This document shows positions 12,491 to 64,000 of a stretch of 64,000 bases of DNA, in pieces. Source of the DNA: Hydrolagus colliei. Taxonomy: Eukaryota. Position numbers and translations under genes: made by a program. The stretch's first letter is position 1; each line of letters opens with the position of its first letter. Where the stretch lies: contig CM068752.1 in NCBI GenBank assembly GCA_035084275.1, forward strand, positions 7,936,001 through 8,000,000, written 5' to 3'. The notes under the pieces were generated by a model. The model worked only from the letters and a program-made list of their open reading frames with translations, was not told the origin of the DNA and made no database searches.

Positions 12491-12520
12491 TGCGCGTGCG
12501 CCGGTGGCTAAGATGGCGGA
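12491..12520 (+). promoter_or_regulatory. SLC35A4 proximal promoter: NRF1 site plus YY1/TISU-like start context
   Basis: TGCGCGTGCGC at 12491-12501 (reverse complement contains GCGCACGCGC) and AAGATGGCGG overlapping the uORF ATG, within a CpG-rich patch. Confidence 0.55.
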
Positions 12521-13976
12521 CGACAAGGTCGGTGGGAGTGAGAGACAGAGAGGGAGAGGCCCTGGGGGAGAGAGACAGAGAGGGAGAGGCCCTGGGGGAG
12601 AGAGACAGAGAGGGAGAGGCCCTGGGGGAGAGAGACAGAGAGGGAGAGGCCCTGGGGGAGAGAGACAGAGAGGGAGAGGCCCTGGGGGGGAGAGACAGAG
12701 AGGGAGAGGCCCTGGGGGAGAGAGACAGAGAGGGAGAGGCCCTGGGGGAGAGAGACAGAGAGGGAGAGGCCCTGGGGGAGAGAGACAGAGAGGGAGAGGC
12801 CCTGGGGGAGAGAGACAGAGAGGGAGAGGCCCTGGGGGGGAGAGACAGAGAGGGAGAGGCCCTGGGGAGGAGAGACAGAGAGGGAGAGGCCCTGGGGGAG
12901 AGAGACAGAGAGGGACAGAGCGTGAGAGGTCCCGGGGGAGGCACAGAGAGAGACAGAGAGGGAGAGGCCGTAGGTGAGAGACACAGAGAGTGGGAGAGGC
13001 CCTGTGGAGAGAGTCAGAGAGAGACAGAGTGGGAGAGGCCCTGTGGAGAGAGTCAGAGAGAGACAGAGTGGGAGAGGCCCTGGGGGGAGAGTCAGAGAGA
13101 GACAGAGTGGGAGAGGCCCTGGGGGGAGAGTCAGAGAGAGACAGAGTGGGAGAGGCCCTGGGGGGAGAGGGAGAGGGTCTGCATGGTAATTGTGTGACTG
13201 ACTGCTGTACTATGAGGATCACTGATATGAGCGCCTCGGGACGCCCTCTTGCCCTATCAGTGTAATGTCGTTGTTGTGGTTGTTGTATATTTACTGTATG
13301 TTTACTTGTTCAGGACTCGCTGGACAAACTGAAAGACTTGGCTCAGCTGAAAGGCCAACTGGAGGACATCCAGCGGCGGGTGGAGGAAGAGGTACAGGCT
13401 GGATTGCCTTCTGTGAGTCACAATATAAACCCGACACATTACCTTCAGTACTGTACAGTACTGTACCGTACACTGTGGTGGTGAGCGCTCGACACAGGGC
13501 GGGTCAGGTCAGGGCCAAGCGTGAAAAGCGGGTTATGAAATGCAAGGATTATTATTATTATTGTACCCTGTGATGCGCTTTGAGACTCTCAAAGACATGA
13601 TAAGGCGCTGTGACAAATGCAAGGATGATGTTGGTGATGATGAGCGCATTGTTTAAACGGCAGTGAGTGTGTGTGTGCGTGAGAGTGACTGTGAATGACT
13701 GAAGTGAGTGACTGTGTGAGTGGTACTCGGTGTGCGTGTGTGTGTAGTCGACCTGTTGACTTCCCTGTGGTTCCCCAGGGAGGTTCGGTCCTTGCTTCTC
13801 CGTTCCTGAAGGGATTCCTGGCGGGTTACGTAGTGGCCAAGCTCCGGTCCTCGGCTGTTCTGGGCGTGGCCATCGGCGCCTGCACAGGCATCTACGCCGC
13901 CCAGAACCTCAACATCCCCAACGTCGAGAAGACGGTGAGGGATTACTTGGAATCCATGAAGAAGAGGCCAAACTGA
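12513..13976 (+). CDS. SLC35A4: SLC35A4 upstream-ORF microprotein (SLC35A4-MP), 103 aa, 3 exons
   Basis: Exons 12513-12527, 13314-13412, 13779-13976 give MADDK|DSLDKLKDLAQLKGQLEDIQRRVEEEVQAGLPS|GGSVLASPFLKGFLAGYVVAKLRSSAVLGVAIGACTGIYAAQNLNIPNVEKTVRDYLESMKKRPN*. This closely matches the recalled human SLC35A4 uORF protein; all introns are GT-AG, phase 0. Confidence 0.93.
12541..13170. repeat. Purine-rich minisatellite (30-bp unit x ~12, then ~39-bp variants) in SLC35A4 intron 1
   Basis: agagacagagagggagaggccctgggggag is tandemly repeated. Confidence 0.92.
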
Positions 13977-14267: not shown

Positions 14268-14455
14268 GCTCATTCTCTTTCTCTCCCTTTACCCCACTCT
14301 CTCGTTTTTTTTTCGCTGCCTTAAATTTCACAGACCAACCCAACCCGCACAGAGCCTCTCCCGTTTTAATCTGTGCATCGGACGGACTGAGTTTACGGCT
14401 GTATATATAAACGGTGATATTTAGAACTGAACGGAACCGAACAGAACTTGTGAAC

Positions 14456-15430
14456 ATGAATGGACTGACTGAGCTGGGGAGTCCACTGGGCCCCCCCCAA
14501 CCTGGCCAGGGCCGAGCACGGAGCCGGGTCCGATGGGGTTTCCTGATGCTGTTGTCTGTGCTGGTGTACGGCTCTCACGCGCCCCTCATCAGCTGGTGTA
14601 AGATCAACGGGCAGATTCCTTTCAGTTCGTCTTCAGTCGTGGTTCTGATCGAGCTGGCCAAACTCCTGGTCTCCGTCGCACTGTGGGCAGCCCGGGGCCG
14701 CGGCGGGGTGGCTGGCGTTAGGCTCTCCGCCCGCGCAGTATGTCCGCTGGCCCTCCCTGCTCTCCTCTATGCCCTCAACAATAACCTAGTGGTTCACATG
14801 CAACGTCACATGGATCCCAGCACCTTCCAGGTGCTCAGTAATCTGAAGATCGCCAGCACGGCTGTGCTCTACACCGTTCTCTTCCGCAAGCGCCTCTCTC
14901 TCCTCAAGTGGCTGGCGCTGCTGCTGCTCATGGCCGCCGGCATTTGCCAAACCTACAGCGGCTTCAGCAGCCGGCAGGAGCCCGGCACGGAAACCCGCCT
15001 GTACATCACCGGGCAGGGATTGGCCATGATGCTGGTGTACTGCACCGTGTCCGGCCTATCCGCCGTCTACACCGAACACGTCCTGAAATCCCAGCAGCTT
15101 CCGCTCAACCTGCAGAACCTCTACCTGTACCTGTTCGGTTCACTGATCAACCTGGGGATTCACCTGACCAGCTCTCCAAGCGGGGGCTTCTTTAAGGGTT
15201 ACTCGGGCTGGGTGGTGCTGATAATCGGCAGCCAGGCCCTCAACGGCTTGCTCATGTCCGTGGTCATGAAGTACGACACCAACATCACCCGCCTCTTCGT
15301 CATCTCCTGCTCCATGTTGGTCAACACCACTCTCTCCATCTGCTTCTTCTCGTTACAGCTCACACCACACTTCCTGGCGGCTGTGCTGCTGGTATCTCTG
15401 GCCATTCATCTGTACTATCGGGTTAAATGA
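14456..15430 (+). CDS. SLC35A4: Probable nucleotide-sugar transporter SLC35A4, intronless, 324 aa
   Basis: First in-frame ATG is at 14456. Multi-pass hydrophobic protein with SLC35A motifs (YGSHAPL, PFSSSSVVVLIELAK, PALLYALNNNL, MDPSTFQVLSNLKI, SGLSAVYTE, LNGLLMSVVMK); position next to APBB3 matches human synteny. Confidence 0.95.
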   Translation: MNGLTELGSPLGPPQPGQGRARSRVRWGFLMLLSVLVYGSHAPLISWCKINGQIPFSSSSVVVLIELAKLLVSVALWAARGRGGVAGVRLSARAVCPLALPALLYALNNNLVVHMQRHMDPSTFQVLSNLKIASTAVLYTVLFRKRLSLLKWLALLLLMAAGICQTYSGFSSRQEPGTETRLYITGQGLAMMLVYCTVSGLSAVYTEHVLKSQQLPLNLQNLYLYLFGSLINLGIHLTSSPSGGFFKGYSGWVVLIIGSQALNGLLMSVVMKYDTNITRLFVISCSMLVNTTLSICFFSLQLTPHFLAAVLLVSLAIHLYYRVK

Positions 15431-17690: not shown

Positions 17691-19071
17691 ACGCTCACCG
17701 TCCCCATTCGTACGTCAACGATGGCCACTTGGGCGAGGACCCCCCTTCCCCCCTTCCCCACTCACCCACACAAACAAAGACTCCCTCCCACAAACACACA
17801 CTCCATACCCCTCACCCACCCACACACACCCAAGTTTGTGACAGTGTCAGTGCGACAGGTGAGGAAATCCATGGAGATGTGAGGATATTTTGCATGGTTT
17901 AGTTTAGTTGTCAATATGTGCTGCGAGTCCTTTCTGTTCTGGCAATGAGGTTGCGTAGTTTTCTCTCTCCAATAGCTGACGTATATTTATTTGCTTTATC
18001 AATGCAATCCTGATGAGCTGGGCTTTCTTCAGCTCATAGCTGATTCCCTTTCCCCCAACCCCCACCCACCTTCCATACGATACTGACCGTGTAGGCTGTT
18101 TTAGTCTATCTGAAGGTTTATGTTATTTGATTGAGTGCTGTAGTTGATGGAACATCGACTTTACCAAAATAATAAGCAGCTGGAACCAAACCCTCAGCTC
18201 GCTCGCTGACTGTTGTTTATCAACCGGATAATCATGAAATATAATTTGCCAAAGGTGGGACCATTTTCCTCCCCTCGCTGTGACCAGTAGCGTGGCTGCT
18301 ATCTCAGTCCCAGTCTCGCTCTTATTCCAGTGTTTGCCGTCGGGCTCCTCGCCATATTCTCTCCCTGAGGGGAAACGGCATGAGCTGTGTTTGATATTTT
18401 TATTGTATTTCAATATTTCTAATGATACGAGGTTCTGAAATTTGTTCTTTTCTCTTGTCAAACAAACTGGCACATTGTACGGATGGGTCTCCTACGATCA
18501 GCTCAAGTGATATAAAGATATTTATAATCCTTTTCAGACTCCCAATGAGTGAAGTCATTTCTGTGGTGTAAGCAAATGCGTTGAACTCATACACACACAC
18601 TGAACCTGTTAGTGTCAATTGGTTAAGACACTGTGACAGAGTTCAGTAAACCATTGAACTCTTTTTCCCCCACAACAAGTCATGTTGATAAACTGGTCTG
18701 ACCGTTTCTCCTTCCTCTTCATCTGGTGTTGAAAGAACAACTGGATATTGTAACTCAGACATTGCCATAACTTTATTATAATGCACACATCTATACAGTA
18801 TATACTGTATAGAGATATATATGGTATATATATATATAATACCAGAGCACAGGTCCACAGCAACTCAGACTGCCCAGCCTGGAGACTATTTATTAGGTAC
18901 CATAGAGCAATTGACAGTCTCAAAAACTAGAGAGACATATACATGTGGAGGGAGCAAGTGCAATGATGGGCTCTGGGGGTTGAGATAAGAATGAGAGGCG
19001 CTCCACAGTGTAACCAAACTAGTCCTCGCCCAAGTGGCCATCGTTGACGTACGAGTGGGGATGGTGAGCGT
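17691..19071. repeat. 50-bp inverted repeat, arms 17691-17740 and 19022-19071
   Basis: Arm 1 matches the reverse complement of arm 2 at 48/50 positions. Confidence 0.85.
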
Positions 19072-19122: not shown

Positions 19123-22100
19123 TTACGTTGGCGAGGGCTCTCGCTGTTTGGCTGCTGCTGGTGGACAGCCCGCCTGCTGCTCCCTCTGCTTCACCTCTGC
19201 TGGGAATCAAAACCCACAATCGGGTGAGCGACTTGGAGCGAGATTTAACCCACAGCCCTGTACGCGTCCTGTTACCTTAAAATAACATAGTGCCACACAA
19301 CTACAACAAAATTACACTTGTAGAGCGCCTTTCACGGAGGACTTCCCAAGGTGCTGGACAGTCATTGCTTCAGCAACTAGACCTGGAGAACACCCCTTGA
19401 ATGTGACGACATCAGCGTGTTGAAACCAGCGCTACCTGGATTTTCCTGAGTTTACGATCTTTTGCTGGCCACCGGCGCTGTAGCATTCTGATCGATGTCT
19501 CGCGCGCCACCCTCCAACTCTTACCGTCTTTCAGCCGCCTGTTCTCCAGCTCCAATTGCTGTGTTTTGGCAGCGAGGTACAGGGTATCTTGTACTGACTC
19601 CGCCAGCAGCTCACGGTAACGTTGGTCTCGTTGTTCCCACTGCCTCTCAGAAGCCTCGCGGAAAGTGTGGAGCATCTATTGGGACGAGACGGGAGAGAAT
19701 GCGTCAGGAGGCTGCTGCTCGCCCGGCCAGCAAACAAACCCCAAGCATTTTCCTGCATTCTGGAATTCCATCCCACGGTCCCTTTGCTCTCTCACTCCCT
19801 CACCTCCTTTAAGGCCAATCTCAACACCCTCCTCTTCGACCATGCCTTCTGCTGCCTTCCCAATTGTCTCCCTCCCCTTGCAATTCTCTACCTCCCCTCT
19901 CAACTTTCTCCCTCCTCATCTAACTGTCCCTCCCCTGCACCCTACCCTGCGCTTCTCTGTCTTGCTCGGATCCAGACCCGACTGTTCAGCGCCCTTGGGA
20001 CGTCCTTCCGACGTGAAAGGAGCTCTATAAATGTAATTTTGTTGTAGTTGTTTTCTCACAACAAGTTGTGCTGACGCAGCGCCTTTCACGTCAGGAGGAC
20101 GTCCCTGTGACACGGATTTACGTTTGACATTTTCTGTTCCGTTAGGGATTGTTTGGGGCTGAGATTCCCTCATTAATGCTCCTGAAGAAGGGGAGAAAAT
20201 GAACAAGGGAAGGGGAGCCAAACTGGGACAGACTGACCTCCAGACTTCGGCACCTCTGCCTCTCCAGCTCCAACCTACATTGCTGGTATAGAGACCGCAT
20301 GTCCTTCTCAGCCTGGGCCTTCTCCCTGCGCAGGGTCACCAGGTACAGGACCAGTAGCTCCTGCTCCCTCTGCAGGCCTGTGCCCTCCTGGGACTTGCCC
20401 GCAGCCTCGCTCCCTCCTGCCTGACAGAAACACAACCTTGTCGACAAAACCACCATAATCCTCGCATTTCATGTCTTGCCTGTATCGTGTCGATGTACTG
20501 TATTTCACAGGCAATTGCTGTCAAGTGAAGTGCTTTCAGACGTCACAAAGACTTGTTAGGAAGCTGTATCAAATGCAAGGATTATTATTATTAGTTGTGG
20601 CCAAACTCCTGTCTCTTCTCCAAGAGCATCGCGGGATTATTAACACCCACAAAGGAGTGGTCGGGATTCTAACCGAGAAATAGATTAACAAGTGTGAACC
20701 AAAGGGACGTATTTTGCACGCATTAACAGAGATCTCTCTCTTCTCTCTCTGTATCAGTTTTACCTTTTCTGCTCCCTGTTCGATCATTCTGGACAACTCT
20801 CTCTCGATCAGGGCCATGTTTTCCTCCTCTAACCACTTCCTCTTCTCCAACGCCGTTGCGTACAGACGGTCGATTTCAGACTCAGCCGACGAGCTGTCCT
20901 TTGGGGAGCAAAGCAAGAGCTTCCACTTGTGCACCACAGAACCTTCAACACTGCAGTATTTCAACCCACCAACAGCCACAAGGCCAATCGCCAAACAATC
21001 ACCAGGATTGCTGTCTTGGAAAACGGGAGAAACTAATAAAGCAGTTTCGATTAGGTGCAGATATAATTTCCTCTGCTGGGTGGTGGGAATCCAGAACAAG
21101 GGGATACCCTCTTAAAATCAGAGCTCAGCTTTATCAGAGTGAGATCAGGCAGAACCTTCACACACACAGGGTTGTGGAAATCTGGAACTCTTTTCTCCTT
21201 TCCCCAAAAGGCTGCGAATGATGATCTCTATTGACAAGGTAGAGAGATGTTTGTTCGGTCAAGGTAGCAAGCGGCAATGGGGCAAAGGCCAGGTAATAGG
21301 AGTTGAAGTACAGATCAGCCATGATCCTATAGATTAGCAGAACAGGCTCGAGAGACTGAATGGCCTCCGTCTGTTCCTAATAAATGGGCAACGGGTCAGA
21401 TATAAATGGAGAATTGCAGGACAGAGAAAGAGTTTACAACCCGAAGGCCCTCACCTTGTTACTGGCTCCGGTCGCACTAGTCAGTTGTTCCTGTTGGTGT
21501 CTGAGCTCCTTCAGGCTGTTCTGGCTCTGCCCCAGCCTCGCCTGCAGCTGTTGGATGTTCCTGATGATGACTTGTAGCTCCTTCTCGTCCCCATGCTCGG
21601 CTTTCGCGGCAAAACCCGGACACAATATTGGAATGACTTTTGTCATTTATTTGAGAAAATATTTCCCCTTTTACGACAAGTTACATTGGCACAGCACCTT
21701 TCACGTCGGGAGGACATCCCAAGGCGCTGGACAGTCGGTTTAGCTCAACCTGAGCTGAGGATTCAGAGAGGGGTGGAAGGGAGGGTAGGGGAAGAGTTCC
21801 AGAGGGTGTGGGCAGAAAGGCTGAAGGCTTGACTGCTGATAGTGGAGTGTACAAGGCAGGGGATGTGCAGCAGGTCAGTGTCTGCGGAGCTGGGGGGAGT
21901 CGACAGCCTTAGTGAAGTTTCAATAGGCCACAGAGGCAAGGAGGAGCGAGAGATTGGTTTGATGCAGGGAGTGGGGAGGAGGTTAGCGGGGTTGGAATGG
22001 TCTGCATTATTGACTCTGGTGCTGCTCCCAATCACTTTCAAACGGAGTCTCGGGGGGCAGCGCTGACTCACCTTTCAGATACGCCTCAACCTCACTCTTA

Positions 22101-24532
22101 AGATGCTCTTTAATCTCTCGGATCTGCTGTTGTGTCCGTGTGCACTCCTCAGCCAACTGCACTCGCTGCTGCTCACTGCCCAGGGGTGTCAGCTTCAAGG
22201 CCAACTCCAGTAATCCCTGCCCATAAAAACATCTCAGCTGTGGGGAGTGTGGGTGGGGGGGAGAGGGGGGGAAGCGAGATTGGTTTGTGGAGGGAATGAG
22301 AGAAGGGTGTGGGGAGCAAGAGGGGTGCCGTGAGGGGAGCAGGGCTGTGAGGAGTGAGGGGCGTGAAGAGCCGAGGGAGTGAATGAACAGGCTGTAGGCA
22401 CAGAGTGGAGTGCAGTCTGGGATAAAGCTGGATATATGCAGTAGGACTGATGGACTTGTTAACCAAACCAGAAGAACCCACCTTAGCAACAAGGTGCTGC
22501 TTTCTCTCTGCCTGGCAATGTCGGGATTGACATCTCTTCTTCTCCCACTCTTGTTTCTTCACCACCTATCCAGGGGAATAAGATGCATGATAGGCTCATC
22601 CAAATCTCTGACTGCGTCCCAAGGCGCGGAGGCTTGAAAGTGGTGCTCCTGTAACTCAGTAGTTAGAGTACTTGCCTTACAAGCGGGTTCAATTTCAGGC
22701 AGGTCAGGGCAGGGAGAAACCTTGGGCAAGTTTCCTTACTCTACACACACACACGCCTGATAATAATCCCTCCAAAAAAATCCAATACTAATTTGGTCGC
22801 TCAATCCACGACTGTTGGTGGGGACGCTGCTGTGTGCAATATAGCGCGGAGGGCGCTATATAAATCCAAGTTGTTGTTGTATATCAAATTCAAGGATGAT
22901 TATTATTTTATTATGATCATTATTACAATAGAGGGCGGGGAGGTCCGGGGAAGTGGGGAAGCTGAAGAGTTACTCGCCTGCAGTTCCTGGACGAGCTGTG
23001 CCAAATTTGCCGCCTCCTGCCGTGGCACGTCCTTGCCGGAGCTGAGCCGTTCCCGGACCTGGCGGATGTGGAGTCGGAGCCGCTCGGTCAGCTGTGGTGG
23101 GTCCCAGAGGTCCCGCTCGACCCGGTTAGTGAGGAGAGCGGCGCTCCGAGCCAGACCCAGAGCCCAGGCAGCCTCGCCCGGCCAGGACTCTGTCAGCAAC
23201 ACACAGGTGCAAGCCGGTCAACTTCAGATACACCTCAGCCTCCAGAGGACACAGGGTGAGGAGAGGAGACTCTTATACAATAACAAAAACACGTGGCACT
23301 CACACAGTGCCTTTCACGTCGGGAGGACGCCCCGAGGTCCTGGACAGTCAGGGATTTATATCCGAGCTGAGGGTTGAGATCAGGAGCGGGTGGGGGGCAG
23401 AGAGGGAGGGTGGTGTTAGAGGAGGTGACCAAAGGCGTGGTCGAAGAGGAGGGTCTTGGAGAAGGGGAGGGAGGGAACACAGAGAGTTATCATGATGTGT
23501 TACAAATGCACTGTTAAAACAAAGTTGCTTAGAGTAGAATCCGTAATACCTGGACTGCAGTAGGTGTTCACGAGTGGTTGGCTGGTGAATCAGGGTGTAA
23601 GAACTTACTTGTGTTTCAGTCTGTAACAGAGACCTACCTGGCAGGTGCAGACAGGATATCAGCACAGAGCACCTGTTCCCTTGCAGAGCCTGGCTCAGCA
23701 GCACATCTGTGCAGCCGAGCCCTGGCTCTACGTGAATTTTCGTCCCATTCACAGCGCACTCCAGCGGAGATGGACTGCGCACAGAGAGAGAAAGAGAGAC
23801 TGATGGAAACATTTAATAACAACAACAAAATTACATTTATAGAGCGCCTTTCACATCGGGAGGACGTCCCAATAATCCTTGATAATAATAATCCTTGAAT
23901 TTAATATAGCGCTTTTCACGTCTTCTAGAATGTATCTCAAAGCACTTCACAGAATATACTTGTATATACTGTATACTTGTAGGCGGAACACGGCAGCCAA
24001 TTGAGGACAACAGTGTCCCCACAAACAGTCGTGGATTGAAATGACCAATTTTATTTTTGTGTTTTTGTTTTGGAGGATTATTAGGCGTGTGGAGTAGGGA
24101 AAGTTGCCCAAGGTTTTACCCTGACCTGCCTGGATTCGAACACAGGTCTCTCTCTCTCCCTTCTCTCGAAAGGTACTGAAAGTCTTCACAGAATTCATAG
24201 CAGCCGTTTGTAACATTAGCAAATGCTTACGTTCAACCTGGAGTTGTTAGGTTAGCCAGGTATTTAAGAGCCGCGTTTGAAAAGGAACCGTTGCTGGGAG
24301 AAGACGCTTACCTATTCCTAGAGCTCGGCCCAGCCCCGCCTGGCAGGAGGTAGACCTGGACAGCGGAGCGACGCACACCAATATTGGTCTCTCGCTGCTC
24401 GAGGGTGACTGTGAACAGTGAACCGCACCTGGAACCACCACAACAACTTACACTTCAAGGTGATTGGCAGAGTGGGGGAGAGAGAAAATTCCAAAGCTTT
24501 GGTTGCGTTGTGGCTGAAACCACAGGAGAGAA

Positions 24533-24572
<40 letters not shown>

Positions 24573-27500
24573 CATTTACAGCTCTCAAGGTTCCAGCATT
24601 GTGTCGCTGTGGCTTATAATGGTCGGATAGGAACACTGCTCCTTAACCCCCACCTGTCAGTGAGGGTTCCTGCCAGCCTCTCAGCCTCTCTGCCCTGTCG
24701 GTACAAGTTCCACGCCTCCTCAGAACTGCCCACCACAAACTCACTCAGCTCCTCCACAACTCTGAAACCAAACGAAGGGGAGAAAAAACCTTGTGAGATC
24801 CCACCTTATCCCCAACACTTATCCCCCCCTCCCCCCCCCCCCCACCACCGTGTCCTCAGCTCGGATCTGAAGCAGTGACTGTCCAGTGCCCTGGGATGTC
24901 CTCCTGACATGAAAGGCGCTATACAAATGTAATTTTGTTGTTAACACACCCCACTACCCAGTCTCCCCACACCCCCCCACCGAGAGAGAGGGTAAAATGC
25001 TGTACTCACAGACCCAGCACTGGGTGTGGGACACATTGCATCGCTCTGTCGTGTGGGTTCAGCAGATCCAGAGAGGAACCGTCTGTGTGAAGCTGTGATG
25101 GCAGAAAACAGTGCAGCAAACACAGAGACAATTGTTTAACCCAGTCAACAATCCAGCACCGACACTCACCAGAACAAAGGGCAGTATCTCCTTCAAATCA
25201 GAGCTGGGCTATTTGGAGGAGTGAAATGAGACTTTTTTTTTCCCCACACGCACAAAAGCTAGCGTACATCTGGAACTCTCTATTCCTGTTCCTATCTTCC
25301 TTCAACTTTGGGCAGAAACATGATGATAATGATGACATAATAATAATCCTTGCATTTTCACGTTGTTGTTGTTCTAGACTGTATCTCAAAGTGCTTCACA
25401 GAATATACAGTACAGTACTGTAAAGTGAATTGACTGTATATTTGTGGGTGAAACGCAGCAGCCAATTGCGCCCAGCAGCGTCCCCACAAACAGACGTGGA
25501 TTGAAATGACCAATTTTATTATTGTGGTTTTTTTTGGAAGGATTATTATTAGGCGTGTGGGTGGGGAGTAAAGAAACTTGCCCAAGGTTTCGCCCTGACC
25601 TGCCTGGATACAAACAAAAGAGGGAAGGACCAGCACACTCCATATGACCAGTGTCAAATAACAGAAACAGTCCTACGCTTTATCTCCCAATCTCTTCATC
25701 ATTTATTTACTGATTTCCCCAGCTGAATTTGCTGACCCAATCCTCCCGGAATCACCTGCCTCACTGTCCATTGTCCATCTCCACCTGCTCCCCCTGAACC
25801 TCACCGGTCAATCTTCTGACCTCTTGATGCGCAAGACTTACCTGAATGTGTGACACCGTGACGAGCGATTTCTGTTCTTCTTCGTTTAGATCCAGATCTT
25901 CGAATAAATCCTTCAACAACTGGGGGGGATGGTGGGGATAAAAAAGCCCAGGGTGCATTTACTTTTACTTCCAGTTAACAAATCGACTGTTACTCTAGTA
26001 AAGGTCAGCACTTCCGACCGTGAAAGACGCTGTCTGTATAAATGTAATCCTCAACCCCTGTGTGGGACACTGCAGTGCACAATTGACTGTTGTGTTTCAC
26101 CCACAAAATACACAGTCACTTTGCATTATATTCTGTGAAGCGCTTTGAGACATCTCTGAAATGCAACGATTATCATTCCTATTATTATGTGTCACTAATG
26201 ACATGATCAGTGGGAATGTGACTGGTTATGCAGTTCCCTCACAGGAGAAAGCCTTACCTTGTGCATGATCCCTGTCTGATGATCATCTCCCAGCAGCAAC
26301 CTGGCTTTACTGTCTGTCTGAGTCCCTGACACAACCAGAGATATGTTGTAGCCCATCCTTGCTTTACATATCAGGGGCCTCACCAACTCCAAGTATACTC
26401 TGTCCTGAAACACAGCCCTCGTTACTGGTCTTTTACACTGGGGACCAATTCGCAAGATTAACAAAAAGGTTGACTTGAAAACCAAAGTGAAATGTCTTAC
26501 CTGTTCACTGTCCGGGTCGAAGACAGCATCGAATGTGAAGCTGTGGCTCTGTAGAGATGCAAAACAATACAGAGACACAGTGGGTTGGGTTAACTTCTGT
26601 ATCTGAGGCTGGCTCTGGGATACTACCCTATTGTGTGGTGCGTTATATATAAATGCCAAGTTGTTGTGGCTCTAAAGTTGGCTATTCTTCCTTCATAAAT
26701 ATGCACCGATTATAGAAACAACGGCAACTAAATACATTTGAATACTTGGATGTCTGCTTTTTGACAGCTTGATATTGTTATTGACAGCTTGATATATTTG
26801 CAAGATTCTTTCTTTCTCTTTCTGTCTCCCAGTGAAGACTGAAATGTTAACCCATGTCTATTGTCAGTGTTTTGATCCGATCATTAACCTCCGAGTGTCA
26901 ACTGTTACCCACCTTCTCTCCGCTGCTGTCCCCATCGGCGACTGACAGACTTTTGGAATCTCTCACCACAATGAAGGCTGGGTGTCCATCTCCTTTGTCT
27001 GTGAAGTCAGAGAGCGTCAGCTGTTGATCCAGTGATAGGCAGTTTCCCCAGTACAGTATTTCCCCAACAAGACGAATCCCATTGGCTTTAAACCGGAGCA
27101 ATCCTTGATGAGGTTGTGAGCTGAGGTCAGTATTGGTGGGTCAGGGACAGATAAAAAATCCCAAGGCGCTATGCAAAAAGGAAACGGAATTTCTCTCACC
27201 CTGTACCTTGGCCGACAATCCCTCCAAATAAAATTGGTCATTCACTTCAAGGGACACTGCGCAAATGGCTGCAACGTTTCGCCCACAACACTGAAGGTCA
27301 AATACACTTTACAGTGCATCATGTGAAGCGCTTTGAGGTGTCTTGATGACATGATAAGGTGCCGTATCAAATGCAAGGTTTATTATTATTAATATTATTG
27401 GGTACAGAGGGAGCTGGACAAATTCAGTCTGTTGGTTGTTCTCCCTTAAGTGAGCACTAGAGGATGCTGTGGTCTAAGCTTTCTGCGATCTGCAGTTTGG

Positions 27501-27982
27501 GGGACATATGCCTCCCAAGCAGGTCACGCACCCCTCTAAGCTTCAATCCCTTTCCCCATAGGATAGTTTTACAGGTACCCCCGATTTACGATGTTTTTAT
27601 TTACACGGTTTCGATCTAACGAACATAATTTTCGACACCTTTTTAACCGATATACAATATTTTACCAAGAAAAAAATTTGGCGCAGTTTTTTGCGCATGC
27701 ACAGTACATAGTGTATTGCGTGGGACAGAATGGGAAACTGCTTTTCGATTTACGATGTTTCAATTTGCGTGATATTTTTCAGGAACGCAACCCTGTTGTG
27801 AATCGGGGGATACCTATACAGGTTTTGTGTATACGGGTTTTGCGTGTACTGTATTTGCAAATTTCCTCATATGTAAATTGTGAAAGTGAGGGAATTGCCA
27901 AAACGTGGCACTGTCGATGGAGAGTTTTCTGACCTAAGACCTGCTGGAGACCAACAGCCACCTGCACTGGCACCTCCTCCAT
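19123..27982 (-). CDS. Uncharacterised kinesin-like protein with degenerate motor domain and coiled-coil tail (~661 aa, 17 coding exons)
   Basis: Exons 27982-27934, 26998-26913, 26548-26501, 26404-26258, 25919-25842, 25092-25010, 24761-24654, 24428-24312, 23774-23638, 23189-22978, 22565-22482, 22216-22072, 21600-21455, 20898-20764, 20420-20238, 19675-19525, 19199-19123 splice into one stop-free 1986-nt frame with consistent phases. Kinesin landmarks occur in order: VPVQVAV, FTFDAVFD, VRPLI...GYNISL, VTVSHIQ, DLLNP, LSEFVVGSSEEA, LFTVTLEQ, LLSQALQGN. The last exon is the least certain. Confidence 0.8.
21100..21380 (+). mobile_element. CR1-type LINE 3' fragment
   Basis: ...ttcacacacagggttgtggaaatctggaactc...cagatcagccatgatc...gaatggcct...gttcct is typical of shark CR1 3' ends. 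Confidence 0.6.
23883..24150 (-). mobile_element. tRNA-derived Deu-type SINE copy, head truncated
   Basis: Reverse complement of the same body and tail as the full-length copies. Confidence 0.75.
25338..25612 (-). mobile_element. tRNA-derived Deu-type SINE copy, head truncated
   Basis: Reverse complement of the same body and tail as the full-length copies. Confidence 0.75.
27572..27816. mobile_element. Non-autonomous Tc1/mariner (pogo/Tigger-like) MITE
   Basis: Imperfect terminal inverted repeats caggtacccccgatttacga ... ttgtgaatcgggggataccta, with TA on both sides (27570-27571 and 27817-27818). Confidence 0.7.
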
Positions 27983-28460
27983 AACCTGAAACACAAAACA
28001 CACAGGTAGAGTCATATTGCCTCGTCCCAGAGAGAGCAAAGGGCAGCAGGATTCAGCCCACCACTGTCAGCCCCTGGGAAAATCAGGCTCACAGCCATTA
28101 CCTTCCACGCCCAACACACACACACATACCTGACTTGCAGCAGCCAAAAACTCCTACTAGAGAAGATTCAGAGGAAAGTCAATCAGCTCATTCACAGGGT
28201 TAGAGGGATGAGCTGTAACTAGGAATGACTAGTTAAGCCATGGTGGATCTTAAGCCTCGCAAAGAGACAACTCGAGAGAGAGAAAGATAACCTCGATGAG
28301 GTTTGTAAGCAAGTGAATGGGTTTGAAAAGCTAAAACCGGAACAATACTTTCAGCTAAGTTATGAGAACAGGACAATTGCATTATTTTTCATTCCAGGGC
28401 TGCTGAGCACCCAGTGGGATGGTATTTATTGAGCTGGGCAATTTTTAAGGCAATCCTCAC

Positions 28461-28526
28461 CTGTCTGTGCGCTTTCCCTCCTTGTCCCGTCCTGTTTGTG
28501 TTTATAGGTGAGCAGTGGCCGGTAAC
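28461..28526 (-). promoter_or_regulatory. Candidate core promoter and short non-coding first exon of the kinesin-like gene
   Basis: Minus-strand TATAAA at 28506-28501, donor CAG|GTGAGG after 28461, X-box-like GTGGCCGGTAAC at 28515-28526. The ATG-containing exon has an acceptor at 27985. Confidence 0.4.
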
Positions 28527-29358
28527 GCCGGCACTCAGATCAGGGATCCTCTCAAAGGTGCTTCAATAATTAAAGGATGGCAGCTCCTCATCAGCTAATC
28601 TCTTGTCAATTTTTTATCAGGCGAACGGCGTTGTTTTACAATACAAGGAATTAACCGTGAATTATTAATATCCAGTTTCACTTTTATTCAAGGCTCCCGC
28701 TTTCTCTCCATCGCTCAAAAGCACTCAACTCTATCTTCCCTCTACTGCCGAGTTCTATTTAAAAGCCACATATAGACACACACTCAGACACTACCTGATC
28801 GATAGGTCCTATATACAAGTTGTTCTTGTAGTATAATAATCCTTTTGAACACGTTTGAACACAGCATTTCCCTGTCTGTGACGCACTTTGAGACATTGCC
28901 TCGTAATTATCCCTCGGAACCCCCCCCCCAAACAATAAATTGGTTATTTAAATCCACAAATGTTTGTGGGGACGCTGCTGTGCGCAATTGGCTGCTGCGT
29001 TTCGCCCACAATACAGTCAATTAATTTTACAGTATATTCTGTGAAGCTTTGAGACACAGTCTGGAAGACGTGAAAAGCCCTATCAAATGCAAGGATTATT
29101 ATTATTTTATTATTATCAGGATTTTTACCGTAGTACTGTATTATTATTGTTGCTTGTCCCACCAGACTTGTCCCTGAAGCTGTCATTCCCCGCTCAGCCT
29201 GTGGGTGGCGGTGCGGAGCCGAGGCGCTGCAGTACTGGACGGTGGCCACGGGGAGGCGCTGCAACACCTCATTGATAGCTGGTGCCTCTCGGCTTCAAGG
29301 CCGGGCACAGCCAGCGAGTGGAGGCCGAGGCTCAGAGCTCCCCGGGCCAGGACCGGTT

Positions 29359-32300
29359 ATGCTGCGAGAAAGCAGAGGTCGTTACCAAGCGCACGGCATA
29401 GAGGCGTTCAAATGCCGCAGGAGGGAGCAGGAGAAGGGTGAGTGGCTCACAACTCCAGCCCCAGGCCTTAGTCTGTCACTAGGCCCCAACTCCAGGGTGG
29501 GGGGTGTCTGTCCTCAGGGGGTGGGGGGGGGGGGTGTCTGTCCCCAGGGAGGGGGGCAAGGGTGGGGTGGGGGGGGACCACAAACTATAATAATAATAAT
29601 CCTGGCGTTTGACCCAGCGTCTTATCCCGTCGTGGGGACGTCTCAAAGCGCTTCACAGGGACACACTGTAAAGTGTGGTGACTGTGTGTGTTTTATGGGG
29701 GGAACGAATCGCGGCAGCCGAATAATTGCGCCCAGCGACGTCCTCACAAACAAACAGCCAACGGTGGGTTGAAGTGACCCAATTATAATGATTGTTTTTG
29801 GAGGGATTATTACCCCCCGGAAAGCCACCCGCCAGTATCCCGCGAAGCTCTTTGAGACGTGACGAGGCGCTACGTCAAACGCAAAGGTTAATGTTATTAC
29901 TTATCATTGATTATCAGGTTTGCCATGTATAGTCTCACCCTCAACCCTCGTGAGCCAGAGCCCGAATCGCCCTCGCTCGTTTTTGAGTCGAAGTTTGCTG
30001 ACGTCAGTCCCGCCCTTTTGTTTCAAAATTGCAGCTCTCAGGAAGGCACGCAAGGAGAAACAGCTGGTTAGCAAGAGGCTGCCCAGGGGCGTGTGGGAGG
30101 ATGGAGGTGGAATGGAGACCGCAGAAAACACGCTGACCCGAGAGGAGGTCAGACACCATTGCCAGAAGCTGTCTGTGCTGTAATCCATCCTCCCTCGCCC
30201 GTCTCGTTTCTGAATCCCCCGCGAATAACATCCTCTTGTCTCTTGAATCGCTTCAGGTTTTGCAGCTACACCAGAGGATCCAGTTGGGGACCGAAGACAG
30301 ACTGGTGGCTTTGCGGCGCCTGCGCCGGGCCCTCCAGCAGAAGGAGGTACAGCAGATGTTTACCAGGTATTCCCGACGTTCTGGGCTCCTAGGTTCTCGG
30401 TCGGGTTGTCTACCAGAGAAAGGCAGATCGATGTGTAACCTTTGGCAAGTTTCCTCACTCCACACGCCTCTGTTAACCCCAGCGGTAAGCAGCAGGGATC
30501 CCGGCTGTTCGTCGATTGGTGAATTGTTTTCTGGTGGGTAAAAAATCCCTCAAGGAAAATACTAATTTGGTCATTCAATCCACAGCTGTTTGTGGGACCT
30601 CATTGTGCACAATTGGCTGCCGTGTTTCGCTCACAAAACACTTCACAATATATCCTGTGAAGTGCTTTGAGATGTGTGTCAGCGTTGTGATGAGGTGCTG
30701 TATCAGATGCCAGGATTGTTATTGTGATTAAGGCTGACAGATGGGTCTGCGCTAAAACATTTGTGCTGGTATGAAACCGATTTGCGAATGAACTGGTAAC
30801 CAGCGCCTGGGGGAGATCACCAGCTTAATGTTCTGTTCCTCTGCAGGCTGGAGAGCAGTTTGCGTGTCCTGGTGGGTCTGTTCACCAGTAACCTTGCCTC
30901 GGTACAGCTAGAGGCCGCAGGGTGTTTGCTGGAGCTCTCTCACTCAGACGACCCCAGCATCTCTCTGCTCTGTTTGCCTGCAACTCCTTATCTCTTGACT
31001 TACCTGTCGGGCCGGAGCGTGAGATTCACGGTAAGGATTTTGCCCAGGAGCCGGCGATGTTTGCCAACCACGAGTGCGCTCTGAGCTGCCTGCAATTCTC
31101 TTCTGATATAAACCTGAGCTTGTGTTACGCTGTTGCAGGAGCTGTGTTTGTACATACTGGGGAACCTGGCAGCAGAGAATGCAGCGGTCAGGAAACAGCT
31201 CATGGCACAGGGTGTGATTCACGCACTCGCTACCTGCCTACAGGTGAGACATGCCCCCACACACAGCATTGTGAACACGCAGCCCTGAATATATGGTCAT
31301 TGTCACAGCACAGACAGGGACCATTGAGTCTGGACTTGTGTTATTGCAAACAATAATAATTAATTTTTTTAATTCGTCATTTCAATCCACGACTGTTTGT
31401 GGGGACTCTGCTGTGTGCAATTGGCTGCTGCGTTTTGCCCACAAATATACAGTCAATTCACTTTACAGTATATTCTGTGAAGCGCTTTGAGATGTCGATA
31501 AAATGTGAAAAGCGCTATATCAAATCAAGGATTATTATTATTCTCTTTGTGTTCCAACTGTGTGGTGTTGCAACAGTTTTCACCTTGTCATTACCCTCTG
31601 CAGTTCAGTGCCTTCGCCTGTTACTAAGCCAACATCTGTTTTTTCACCCAATACGGTTGATGTGTGAGCCTCCACATTGATTGCTGACTGGATGGGGGAT
31701 AGCCAGTGCTATGTGCCTGTTCTAAGTTGACGTTAAGACTGTAAACCTGTGGGTTTTACTTATTCTCGTGATGTTAACAACCTTGTCTGCGTTACAGTCG
31801 CCTGAGGGAGCCGTGGTGGAGGCTGCAGCGTATTCACTCTCACAGCTCCTGCAGGGCAAGGAGTCAGCCCACAGCATCGTACCGTAAGTGGCTTACAAGT
31901 CTCGTAACCCGGGGTGTGGGGGGGTGAGGGCGCAGAACAAACTCACCGGCCACAAGACTCCAGAGTGAGTTCATCCATCCCAATCACATTGTTTAGAGAC
32001 AATAGGACTTTGTTTCACTAACAAAAAACACAGTCACTCCACTTTACAGTGTATTCTTTGAAGCGTTTTGAGACGTCTCAATTACCTGACAAGGCGCTTA
32101 TTATTCACAATGTGATATGTCAGCCCTCGCTATAGCCTCAGGCCAGCTGTCTGTTGTAGGCTGTGTCAGAGAACCTGTGGTGTGTGAGGGGACAGAGAGA
32201 GAGTGAGCGAGTGTGTTCAATGGACTGAAAGGTCTTGTCCTGTTTTACCCTGCTATGATGGAAACGTAGGAACAGAAGGAGTCGATTCAGCCCCTTGAGC

Positions 32301-54245: not shown

Positions 54246-54647
54246 TGGGCACAAGAGAGGGAGAGGCAGAAAGAGAGAGACTAGGTCTTGGTATAGGGAG
54301 AAAGAGGGGAGAGAAAGAAAGGCTCAGGCAGACAGACGGAAAGAGAGAGAGAGAGAGCAAGGCTTAGAGAGAGGGACTGGGGTCTTGAGATAGAGAGAAG
54401 GAGCGAGGCAGAGAGGAGCGAGAGAGTGGGGAAGAGAACATAAGAGAGAGAGAGAGAGAGAACTGGATCTGAGATACGAGAGAGGCTGAGAGGAAAGGGG
54501 GAGGGGGGGTGTGAGAGACAGAGTGTGACAGTCTGAATTACAGAAATTGACATCCACTATCTGCCCAGTGGCAGCTTCTCTCCGGGGATTACAGCGGACT
54601 TTACTTCTGTCTGTCCTGTGTTTAAGGTAAGAATTAGCTGAGCAGTT

Positions 54648-55512
54648 TTGGGAGCTGGGCTGTGTGTGCGTTGGGCTGTGTGTGTGTGTTGGGAGCTGGG
54701 CTGTGTGTGTGTGTGTGTTGGGAGCTGGGCTGTGTGTGTTGGGAGCTGGGCTGTGTGTGTGTGTGTGTTGGGAGCTGGGCTGTGTGTGTGTGTTGGGAGC
54801 TGGGCTGTGTGTGTGTGTGTTGGGAGCTGGGCTGTGTGTGTGTGTGTTGGGAGCTGGGCTGTGTGTGTTGGGAGCTGGGCTGTGTGTGTGTTGGGAGCTG
54901 GGCTGTGTGTGTGTGTTGGGAGCTGGGCTGTGTGTGTGTTGGGAGCTGGGCTGTGTGTGTGTGTTGGGAGCTGGGCTGTGTGTGTGTTGGGAGCTGGGCT
55001 GTGTGTGTGTTGGGAGCTGGGCTGTGTGTTGGGAGCTGGGCTGTGTGTGTGTTGGGAGCTGGGCTGTGTGTGTTGGGAGCTGAGCTGTGTGTGTGTGTGT
55101 TGGGAGCTGGGCTGTGTGTGTGTGTGTGTTGGGAGCTGGGCTGTGTGTGTGTGTGTTGGGAGCTGGGCTGTGTGTGTGTTGGGAGCTGAGCTGTGTGTGT
55201 GTGTTGGGAGCTGGGCTGTGTGTGTGTTGGGAGCTGGGCTGTGTGTGTGTTGGGAGCTGGGCTGTGTGTGTGTGTTGGGAGCTGGGCTGTGTGTGTGTTG
55301 GGAGCTGGGCTGTGTGTGTGTGTTGGGAGCTGGGCTGTGTGTGTGTGTTGGGAGCTGGGCTGTGTGTGTGTTGGGAGCTGGGCTGTGTGTGTGTGTGTGT
55401 TGGGAGCTGGGCTGTGTGTGTGTTGGGAGCTGGGCTGTGTGTGTGTGTTGGGAGCTGGGCTGTGTGTGTGTTGGGAGCTGGGCTGTGTGTGTTGGGAGCT
55501 GGGCTGTGTGTT
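54648..55512. repeat. Compound minisatellite [ttgggagctgggc(tg)n] in probable intron 1 of the UGDH-like gene
   Basis: More than 30 tandem units with a variable TG spacer, starting about 20 nt after the donor AAG|GTAAGA at 54626. Confidence 0.92.
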
Positions 55513-57485
55513 GTGTTGGCTGGTGGGGGTGCAGCAGATCATTGTATTTAATATGATTTTAAAACCAAACCCGGGGAGATCTTTTTAACCGGCTGATGAC
55601 CCACAGCTCCCCAAGGTCGGGCCTCATTGCTCAACTTGTCTTTCATCCCGAGCCCTGGCTCCTTCCTCACAGATTGGTGGGGGGTGGGGGTGGGGGTAAC
55701 GTTGAGGCTCCTCATCCCTGGGGAGGTGGGGGAAGGGTTCACACTCTTTGGGGTTTGGAGAAAACTTTTCATCCAAGTGTCATGTCAACTTTGGGTTGAA
55801 AATTTGGATTTCCTCACGTTTTATGCATAGTTTACATATTATTATGAATTTCATAATAATTTGATCACTTCAATCCAGGACTATTTGTGGTTCGTACACT
55901 GCTGTGAGCAATCGCCCACAAACTATATGGTCAATTCACTTTCCGGTATATTCTGTCAAATGCTTTTGAGACATCTCGAAGACGCTGTATCACTCGAAAG
56001 TATTATTATAGCTTGGATAGGACTGGGGCTCAACTAGAGAGAGACATTGTGAGTTACACAAAGTTTCTAAAGTTACTGATGGTGTAAGCTCCAAAATGGG
56101 ACGTGTGGCACTAAGCATTAGGTGTGTCTGGTCAGTTGTCTCTCTAGATATCTCCCCAAATTTTTCCTAAATAGCAAAACAATTATCGTAAACATGTAAT
56201 TAAAACTCTTATCAACAAAAACAAAATTCAGTCAATCCACTTTACAGTACAATTTGAGAAGCGCTCTGAGACGCCTCAACCTTGTGATGTATTAATTGCA
56301 AGGATTATTATTATAATTATTCCAGCATCCTAAAATGACTGCAGATGTGGAGATCTGGCTAGTTTACATTGGTTATTAGAGTTGGGTGACTGGAGTTTTC
56401 GCTGGGTTTGAGGGAACTTCCTAATAACAATGATCAACTAAACAAGGAATGTTTTTTTGGGGAAAGGAAGGGCTAATATCTTCTATTGCTTTGCAAGGAA
56501 CTGTAGGTACTGTTACTGTTAATTACCCAATGAAATAACTGAAGTTGCATGGAATCCTTTGCCCTGAATGTTCTTTATTGCCATCTGCTGGGTTTAACTA
56601 TTTTTAACTATTTTTTGTCTTTATTGCCCCCTTCCCCCACCAAAAAAGTTCATTTGCGTTGATCTGGAACATGACGTGTGCAAGCTACTGCCAGGATGGT
56701 GGAAGGCAAACTGGATGGAGGCATCTAGCATTCCTTATGTGTTTTGGATTTGATGTGTGAAGAGAGATGAGAAGGGACATTCATTAATGCATGGTTGTAA
56801 GGAGGGGGGTAGGTTGCTGGATGTTGCTAACACACCGTGTTGCAATGCTGCGATGAGGGCCTCGGTTGACTTCACAAACACAAGCTGCTTTGCGTAGATT
56901 GAGAGAATGTTGCTACTGTTGCTGAGAGGTGGATTGTGGAGGTCTGAGATACGCAGCAACTGCTCCATTGAATGGGGAAAGATGACCGACCGACTCAGCT
57001 TTGAGCAGCGGCAGTTCCGCTAATGGCTGTCTGGGTAGGTTTATCACAGTGTTGCGTTACAGAGACAGCGAGGTTACTGGCTCTCACCCACACCTGTGCT
57101 GATCCTAATTAATTTATTATTCAAGCGTTTCACCCACAAAAGCCACAAAATATTCTGTGAGGCTCTTGTGAGATGTCTCGGAAGATGTGATGAGGCACTG
57201 TTTCAAATGCAATAGTCATTATTATTATGAATTGGGTCAGTGCTCAGGTTTGCATTTGGTTACCATGAGTGTGTATGTGTATGAGTACATGTGAAATCAG
57301 CCAGGATTCTTATTTCTGATCACTTTCCCAGGCTTACTCCCTGGAAATGCAAAACGCTACACTTACTGTATGTTGAGTCTCAAATCGCTGTATCCTTCCA
57401 AATATTATTTTCTAAAAGGGAATCTATCCTAATATGTCTATGAGTGAATCGGTCAATGTTTTCCTCTCACGGACAGGCTGCTCCC

Positions 57486-64000
<6,515 letters not shown>

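Follow-up and report, generated by a model that had tools for sequence, protein, structure and literature searches.

What becomes of a kinesin when the residues with which kinesins handle ATP are gone, and why would such a gene be kept? The question is raised by a gene for a kinesin pseudo-motor on the minus strand, at 19123..27982, of a stretch of DNA from the chimaera Hydrolagus colliei (GenBank assembly GCA_035084275.1, contig CM068752.1, positions 7,936,001 to 8,000,000 of the forward strand). This whole stretch of 64,000 nucleotides is called the window below. An original prediction, made from the letters of the window, had described the product as a maintained, catalytically dead protein of the kinesin fold. 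The gene is real, conserved, mis-annotated and, within the literature searched, unstudied. We found only incidental mentions of the gene or its family and no functional study, in a search that left most subscription papers out of reach and supplements unsearched.

An intact gene for a degenerate motor head

For the gene model, the minus strand was translated around every candidate exon, and the pieces were joined at splice sites by a script working from coordinates. It has 17 exons, from an ATG at 27982 to a stop at 19123, and a frame of 1983 nt and 660 amino acids in which the terminal stop is the sole one. All 16 acceptors are AG and 15 of the 16 donors are GT, the remaining one (intron 10, 22977) being GC. 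Exon 17 (19123..19199) contains the stop codon and has tandem acceptors (CAGCAG, exon start at 19199 or 19196), giving forms of 660 or 661 residues. This confirms the 17 exons and the stop-free frame of about 661 residues that had been predicted, and both exon-17 forms are also carried by Callorhinchus milii (P0001 and P0011).

With the in-frame stretch of exons 3 and 4 as the query, one protein among 56 candidates was matched, C. milii XP_007900147 (P0001, automatically named 'KIF4-like'). The window model is 77.9% identical to it over 647 columns, and 42-48% identical to three sharks. Exon 15 (61 residues) is an exact gap in C. milii P0010 and Cetorhinus P0017, with 60 of the 61 residues missing from P0021 of the tortoise Chelonoidis, and exon 11 (28 residues) is an exact gap in the Cetorhinus isoform P0004. 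Database isoforms of three other species have their breaks where the model puts its exon boundaries and are an independent check on them; together with the identities to C. milii and the sharks, they argue that the model is no product of chance. Judged from the DNA and the orthologous proteins the gene is intact, its spliced frame being a predicted one. The ATG sits 3 nt behind an acceptor-like AG, so a further, probably untranslated, exon upstream is likely. The two nearest AATAAA signals behind the stop (18772..18894, minus strand) are candidates only. The introns between 19,300 and 26,200 hold numerous copies of short interspersed repeats, which show up as a very high depth of contigs.

The head can be read along the exons, all of which are on the minus strand. 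Exon 1 (27934..27982, residues 1-16) holds strand 1, with GLQQ in place of RxRP. Exons 2 (26913..26998, residues 17-45) and 3 (26501..26548, residues 46-61) are followed by exon 4 (26258..26404, residues 62-110), where a degenerate Walker A (G88-A95) reads GTQTDSKA, with Lys94 kept and the Gly and the Thr/Ser lost. After exons 5 (25842..25919, residues 111-136) and 6 (25010..25092, residues 137-164), exon 7 (24654..24761, residues 164-200) carries helix 3 and the lost switch I, now TDRCG with the Arg kept. Exon 8 (24312..24428, residues 200-239) has LLPGGA for switch II and a shortened loop 11, which together with the start of helix 4 is about 15-20 residues shorter than usual, and exon 9 (23638..23774, residues 239-285) has helix 4 with a proline and the lost loop-12 motif. 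HIPYR is absent. All of these changes in RxRP, the P-loop, the switches and HIPYR are as originally described. The motor is still recognized by Pfam: the C. milii orthologue scores 82.1 bits with the Kinesin model PF00225 (cut-off 29.3), and exons 3 and 4 of the window alone score 20 bits. A P-loop flagged by a regular expression in the window protein is a chance match in the tail.

Motifs were counted in the 37 vertebrate-like rows of an alignment (A4), per covered site; 13 of the rows are named to species and the others were assigned by similarity. Switch I (NxxSSRSH) is intact in none of 34 rows, and none of 35 has an intact switch II (DLAGSE) or an intact loop-12 microtubule motif. Walker A (GxxxxGK[ST]) is intact in four of 30, namely three sharks and a cod, so the claim that every ATPase motif has been replaced holds for chimaeras and not for these four. 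The helix 4 proline, P239, is conserved (87%), and a K..W motif in the CC1 segment behind the neck coil is present in 28 of 35 rows. In the crinoid Antedon (P0035) only switch I has been lost, with Walker A, DLAGSE and HVPYRDSK still in place, and the protists Pygsuia and Trimastix keep all the motor motifs.

By established kinesin enzymology, a head that has lost the Glu of switch II, the Ser-Ser of switch I and the Thr/Ser that binds Mg can no longer carry out coupled hydrolysis. Since all three are lost here, coupled hydrolysis is not to be expected, and ATP turnover by the vertebrate protein is, from its sequence, very improbable. With orthologues in many vertebrates, this agrees with the earlier picture of a maintained protein very likely unable to hydrolyse ATP. 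Canonical microtubule binding by the vertebrate protein is probably weak or absent, a point on which we are less firm; the net charge of the head is -17, whereas 58 intact motors, measured over spans that are not identical, range from -12 to +16.

One alternative is that the protein is a non-motile microtubule binder that still holds nucleotide, in the manner of Costal2/KIF7 or KIF26, and that it cross-links or caps microtubules with its two heads. The intact Walker A in four of 30 rows would suit this, as would the crinoid protein, which is without switch I only, and a Nematostella relative that by eye looks like it; static microtubule binding is likely to be the state of the invertebrate members. 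For the vertebrate protein we consider it unlikely: loop 11 and helix 4 are shortened, with P239 conserved, loop 12 is lost, the head is acidic, and mammals have most of the P-loop region deleted.

Relatives and placement of the family, and a probable human loss

A HMMER search returned 2768 proteins at E 0.001 (a word search, nine), and the relatives given here are drawn from the best 150 of the 2768. The named vertebrates are five chondrichthyans besides C. milii (sharks and a ray), an eel, a cod, a tree frog, two turtles and, as mammalian orthologues, the grey seal and the fishing cat. Outside the vertebrates there are the crinoid Antedon and the protists Hemimastix, Pygsuia and Trimastix. 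The crinoid and protist homologues share the neck and the tail and align end to end; for example, C. milii and Trimastix are 24% identical over 675 columns (E 2e-40). The designation as a vertebrate protein therefore fits the orthologues from sharks to cat and is too narrow for the family. A tail profile built from eight non-vertebrate-like rows gives the window protein 28.5 bits and matches three of 63 other intact-motif kinesins, in a test that is partly independent only, as the profile columns were cut from the joint alignment. On these alignments, the family is older than the vertebrates.

The motor tree comprises 31 rows: eight intact protist-like rows, Antedon, a shark, the window protein and a few reference kinesins, whose labels were assigned from Pfam and known motifs. 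The family is one clade (11 rows, 95/97, starred), sister to FHA-bearing kinesin-3 (99/96, starred) and outside kinesin-3 itself (six rows, 100/99, starred), with 3.42 changes per column on the branch to the chondrichthyans. In this tree we thus see a separate kinesin clade beside kinesin-3, neither KIF4 nor kinesin-17, which bears out the view that the protein belongs to no named KIF.

The names of the orthologues in databases vary at random (KIF4-like, KIF3A, KIF15, klp-20, golgin, trichohyalin), and the ESM Atlas holds a 51-member chordate 'KIF4-like' cluster. Taken at face value, the RefSeq names of several orthologues would make the protein a divergent but active chromokinesin. We find this hardly credible given the lost motifs, the absence of the KIF21A_4th domain and the randomness of the names; an approximately unbiased (AU) test also speaks against grouping the chimaera and the shark with kinesin-4 (p 0.030), modestly and with a long branch in play. 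A grouping with kinesin-2 is disfavoured on similarly modest grounds (AU p 0.017, with only three kinesin-2 rows), and the neck and tail profiles give no match to two KIF3-like rows. This placement contrasts with the 1263-sequence tree of Wickstead et al. 2010 (PMC2867816), in the available part of which two apparent relatives, Nemve_167011 (Nematostella) and Physo_158637 (Phytophthora), are filed as Kinesin-2 without a subfamily; by eye they resemble our rows P0058/P0064 and P0075. The score cut-off of 100 given there probably excluded the vertebrate members, which reach 82 and 98 bits with today's Pfam model.

Three further candidates were set aside. Kinesin-17-type rows group apart (98/95, starred), and P0118 has the DEP-ankyrin architecture of Monbr_28628. 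CCDC78/DUF4472, another lead, gave no such Pfam match. The motor row of Chlamydomonas FAP125, of group X5, is by eye unlike the family, and its central-pair link (PMC7596323) is not transferable.

Behind the motor, the tree matches the vertebrate species tree (12 rows, 99, starred). In a 67-row motor tree all 19 degenerate rows come together at 93, though the result is flagged for long branches; in the post-motor tree six dead rows (100, starred) join the intact protist rows, apart from the animals (91/93, unstarred). Two origins of dead members are tentatively favoured over one. The six rows (P0086, P0095, P0112, P0127, P0138 and P0147, about 650-700 residues, with degenerate switches) form a second clade that is probably from protists and possibly a case of independent motor death.

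The surroundings of the gene link it to a mouse gene and to a human gene loss. The order in the window is a PID gene (minus), an SLC35A4-like gene (plus), the kinesin pseudo-motor gene (minus), a TMCO6-like gene (plus), an NDUFA2-like gene (minus) and RED/IK (plus). The human order, in the available parts of two papers (PMC2764143; PMC7026056), is Apbb3 (minus), Slc35a4 (plus), Cd14 (minus), Tmco6 (plus), Ndufa2 (minus), Ik (plus). Table S2 of Zhang et al. 2010 (PMC2864566, available in part) lists a human unitary pseudogene for mouse E230025N22Rik on the minus strand of chr5, at 139,929,821-139,951,871 (hg18). So far as these sources go, E230025N22Rik and the human 5q31 pseudogene lie like the window gene on the minus strand inside the APBB3-SLC35A4-CD14-TMCO6-NDUFA2-IK block, and from position and strand we are highly confident that the window gene is the orthologue of E230025N22Rik (MGI:3687212). 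If this identity is right a human remnant exists, contrary to the original prediction, which had no counterpart at the human locus. The names of the TMCO6-like and NDUFA2-like neighbours are tentative and come from sequence motifs. On the assumed human coordinates of SLC35A4, only about 1 kb would separate that gene from the start of the pseudogene, and the mouse protein presumably carries a kinesin domain annotation. In the available parts of the sources, the mouse gene appears in three expression lists, one of them alongside Dnah11; its mentions there are incidental, and among the six papers that name it no functional study was found.

Could the gene as a whole be under relaxed selection and heading for the human fate? 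A dN/dS (ratio of nonsynonymous to synonymous changes) above 1 in hares (PMC6065068, available part), the human unitary pseudogene itself (PMC2864566) and the fast divergence, with seal and chimaera 27% identical, all lean that way. We hold it very unlikely in view of open frames in 13 named vertebrates (chondrichthyans, teleosts and tetrapods), invariant residues in core, neck and tail, and an exon-15 skip common to several species. A sequencing run (X1), which behaves as DNA since it covers introns, differs from the window at 35 sites, only two of them coding (one silent, one Ser>Ala). This points the same way, though the coding deficit is not significant (within the listed contigs, two differences in 1226 coding bases versus 21 in 4297 non-coding bases; p 0.09).

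A predicted latch and tail dimer, and a possible scaffold

From 64 rows, AlphaFold2 gave a model of the C. milii orthologue with pLDDT 90.2 and pTM 0.73. Foldseek matches it to kinesins at prob 1.00 with TM to target of up to 0.85. The best VIA match is auto-inhibited KIF13B, 6A20 (Z 36.0, root-mean-square deviation, rmsd, 3.5 over 370 residues, model residues 2-393), and self-folded KLP-6, 7WRG, is matched too (Z 34.2, rmsd 3.8 over 365 residues, model residues 4-388); the match to dimeric KIF13B, 6A1Z, is worse (rmsd 7.4 over 321). Together with the Pfam score of the orthologue, these comparisons uphold the claim of a kinesin fold. Structure searches found no solved structure of a family member, and chains c/d of the mouse sperm central apparatus (9IJJ; 17-21% identity, rmsd 24-33) were rejected as sharing the motor fold only.

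Behind the head, exon 10 (22978..23189, residues 285-355) encodes helix 6, the neck linker (W313), the neck coil and the first half of CC1, and ends at the GC donor. Exon 11 (22482..22565, residues 356-383) encodes CC1 with K358 and W362, a putative latch of the kinesin-3 TWEEK type. Four columns are invariant in 28 deep rows (R320, R327, L351 and K355), all of them in the neck coil and CC1. The 16 best matches of the family profile in the PDB are kinesin-3, and the match runs through CC1. In auto-inhibited KLP-6, CC1 packs back against the neck coil and the motor domain, where W421 fills a pocket (Wang et al. 2022, PMC9314371, available part). The CC1 Trp of the family aligns with the TWEEK motif of kinesin-3 and, by its spacing, would be the equivalent of W421; the model predicts a neck-coil/CC1 latch as in the kinesin-3 auto-inhibited state. 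No FHA domain was found by Pfam in P0001 or in 20 further rows scanned, and the model is all-helical there.

The GC-AG intron (22,976-22,977, minus strand) falls in the middle of CC1. The next exon, with the latch Trp, is the one skipped in a Cetorhinus isoform, and it is here, too, that the ray model P0006 diverges.

Exons 12 (22072..22216, residues 384-432), 13 (21455..21600, residues 432-480) and 14 (20764..20898, residues 481-525) encode stalk helix. Exon 15 (20238..20420, residues 526-586) holds the first half of a predicted dimer coil, and exon 16 (19525..19675, residues 587-637) the second half and the tail signature of the family. Two copies of residues 306-645 scored 0.54 as a complex, where the best of three controls scored 0.00; they are predicted to pair in register, mainly along 536-636 and not through the neck coil (contacts agree to at least 48%, pLDDT at least 58). 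In calibration, 21 of 30 microbial homodimers and none of 23 single chains attained the mark used for such scores; on eukaryotes 17 of 29 did so (animals, 7 of 16), but only one of seven without an older solved relative. The conserved tail residues A557, L561, L615 and L622 are within the predicted interface. The models thus predict a homodimer via the C-terminal coiled coil, half of which is deleted by the exon-15 skip that C. milii, Cetorhinus and Chelonoidis share.

Our best explanation, to which we give an even chance, is a non-motile, two-headed scaffold, dimerised through its tail, with latched kinesin-fold heads. The head, which lacks both switches, the loop-12 motif and a full Walker A, leads into a neck of kinesin-3 type and then a long helical stalk; likely not a motor, the protein would dimerise via the C-terminal coiled coil, and each head would be held in the fold-back of auto-inhibited kinesin-3. 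Whether the locked head and the conserved tail would then serve as binding surfaces that bridge other proteins is, to us, evenly balanced. The named carrier species are presumably flagellated, and motile cilia or sperm are a tentative suggestion for the site of action, somewhat short of an even chance. In evolutionary terms, the family would have begun as an active group without FHA, sister to kinesin-3. Switch I would have been lost early in animals while the P-loop and the microtubule motif stayed, and the remaining motifs in a burst on the vertebrate stem; decay would have followed in some mammals and become complete in humans.

The predicted pairing also bears on a different explanation, that the protein is the non-catalytic partner of an active kinesin, which it tunes or inhibits as a heterodimer through the neck coil or stalk, like Vik1/Cik1 with Kar3 or TbPH1 with KifX2A. 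Neck-coil residues R320, I323 and R327 are conserved from protists to mammals, protists have active paralogues with the same neck and tail, and there are precedents (PMC4338441 and bioRxiv 2021.09.29.462327, available parts). That said, the predicted homodimer runs through the tail and not the neck coil. The microtubule site that Vik1/Cik1 keep (PMC4338441) stands against a loop-12 motif gone in all 35 rows, and an exon-wise search of the animal's own genome, a lower bound, gave no second gene with the same tail: P0001 and invertebrate-tail queries found only this locus and motor-only matches to ordinary kinesins. We therefore rate a partner role as improbable.

Several points weigh against the scaffold explanation in whole or in part. 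The AlphaFold2 models are those of the C. milii orthologue and not of the window protein. The first, from nine rows, was poor (pLDDT 64.7, pTM 0.46), and the good one included rows from active relatives, which may impose their own latch. The Z of 36.0 for 6A20 is within 1 of that for a plain KIF15 motor (35.1); the argument for the latch is drawn from the longer aligned range and the rmsd, not from contacts in the model, and KLP-6 CC1a residues E409/N410 are without a match in the family. Any long parallel coiled coil will tend to pass with a complex predictor. As to the head, residual nucleotide binding is possible, most of all in sharks, since three sharks and the cod keep Walker A and the window protein keeps Lys94; the half from switch II to helix 6 is only mildly less basic than in intact motors (-1 versus mostly +1 to +11). 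As to cilia, the tail profile matches no solved axonemal chain, and the mouse mentions are incidental. The human loss and the dN/dS above 1 in hares, finally, make the gene dispensable in some mammals.

The most complete form of the scaffold explanation strikes us as rather doubtful as a whole. It would have an unnamed subfamily that dates back to the major eukaryote groups and stands beside kinesin-3 as its sister. Its motor would have died step by step in animals, and separately in one protist clade, with the latch retained; in vertebrates the head, permanently off and no longer binding microtubules, would have found a new use as a structural component of motile cilia or sperm. The protein would be absent from the mammalian KIF list and lost in humans.

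Neighbouring genes and known pseudo-motors

Tail to tail with the kinesin pseudo-motor gene stands the SLC35A4-like gene for a nucleotide-sugar transporter (14411..15430, plus strand), a name inferred from gene order. Its upstream open reading frame (12,510-12,530 + 13,716-13,960, plus strand) is intact, and the microprotein matches Pfam DUF4535 with 32.2 bits, above the cut-off. The mammalian SLC35A4 mRNA encodes two proteins, and this arrangement likely reaches back to jawed vertebrates. On the other side, head to head with the pseudo-motor gene, is a TMCO6-like exon (29900..30200, plus strand), named from a motif and gene order with no Pfam match. The pseudo-motor and TMCO6-like genes lie around a CpG-rich stretch at 29.6-30.0 kb, a possible shared promoter, and a motif scan and the translation of three frames showed no CD14-like leucine-rich repeat frame between them at 28,000-29,900. 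Exons like those of UDP-glucose dehydrogenase (UGDH) lie at 60,000-63,300 (plus strand), behind the IK gene; UGDH is not known to lie at human 5q31, and the exons may reflect a paralogue or a rearrangement. The long open frames at 12,540-13,200, in the first intron of the SLC35A4-like gene, and at 54,300-55,550 are spurious and stem from low-complexity tandem repeats.

Few kinesins are catalytically dead, and most of those are confined to particular lineages; the present family, mis-named in databases, spans jawed vertebrates. It offers a natural series, from active Trimastix and Pygsuia through the switch-I-dead crinoid and the Walker-A-only sharks to the stripped chimaeras and mammals, so that the purpose of a kinesin fold without ATP becomes directly testable. 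If our explanation is true, the auto-inhibitory latch, the best-conserved part, would be an off-state made into the functional state. A catalogued human gene loss would also gain a protein identity, and could be studied in mouse.

How does the family compare with known systems? Costal2/KIF7 and KIF26 are non-motile animal kinesins that serve as scaffolds and keep most nucleotide and microtubule motifs; this use resembles the one proposed here, in different families and with different tails. Cos2 is also covered in the available part of PMC2867816. Yeast Vik1/Cik1, trypanosome TbPH1 and diplonemid KinesinWW have, like the family, a kinesin fold without ATPase motifs, though as a kinesin-14 partner and as PH and WW proteins they are, in the parts of the sources available, of unrelated lineage and architecture. 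Vik1/Cik1 are obligate partners of an active motor and keep microtubule binding. The earlier analogy with Vik1/Cik1 and Costal2 accordingly stands for the absence of catalysis and is otherwise imperfect, because those proteins are microtubule binders and the loop-12 motif, too, is among the losses of the vertebrate protein. KinesinWW (bioRxiv 2026.03.30.714256) and the fungal 'pseudoKinesin-21' (PMC5076506), as described in the available parts, are other dead kinesins unrelated to the family. Kinesin-3 (KIF13B, KIF1A, KLP-6/KIF28), in contrast, is its sister clade in our motor tree, with a homologous neck coil and CC1 that carry a TWEEK-type Trp, and the auto-inhibited kinesin-3 form overlays the C. 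milii model. Unlike kinesin-3, the family has no FHA, MBS or MATH/PH domain; it has a plain helical stalk and a tail that is predicted to dimerise, and in animals its catalytic motifs have been lost.

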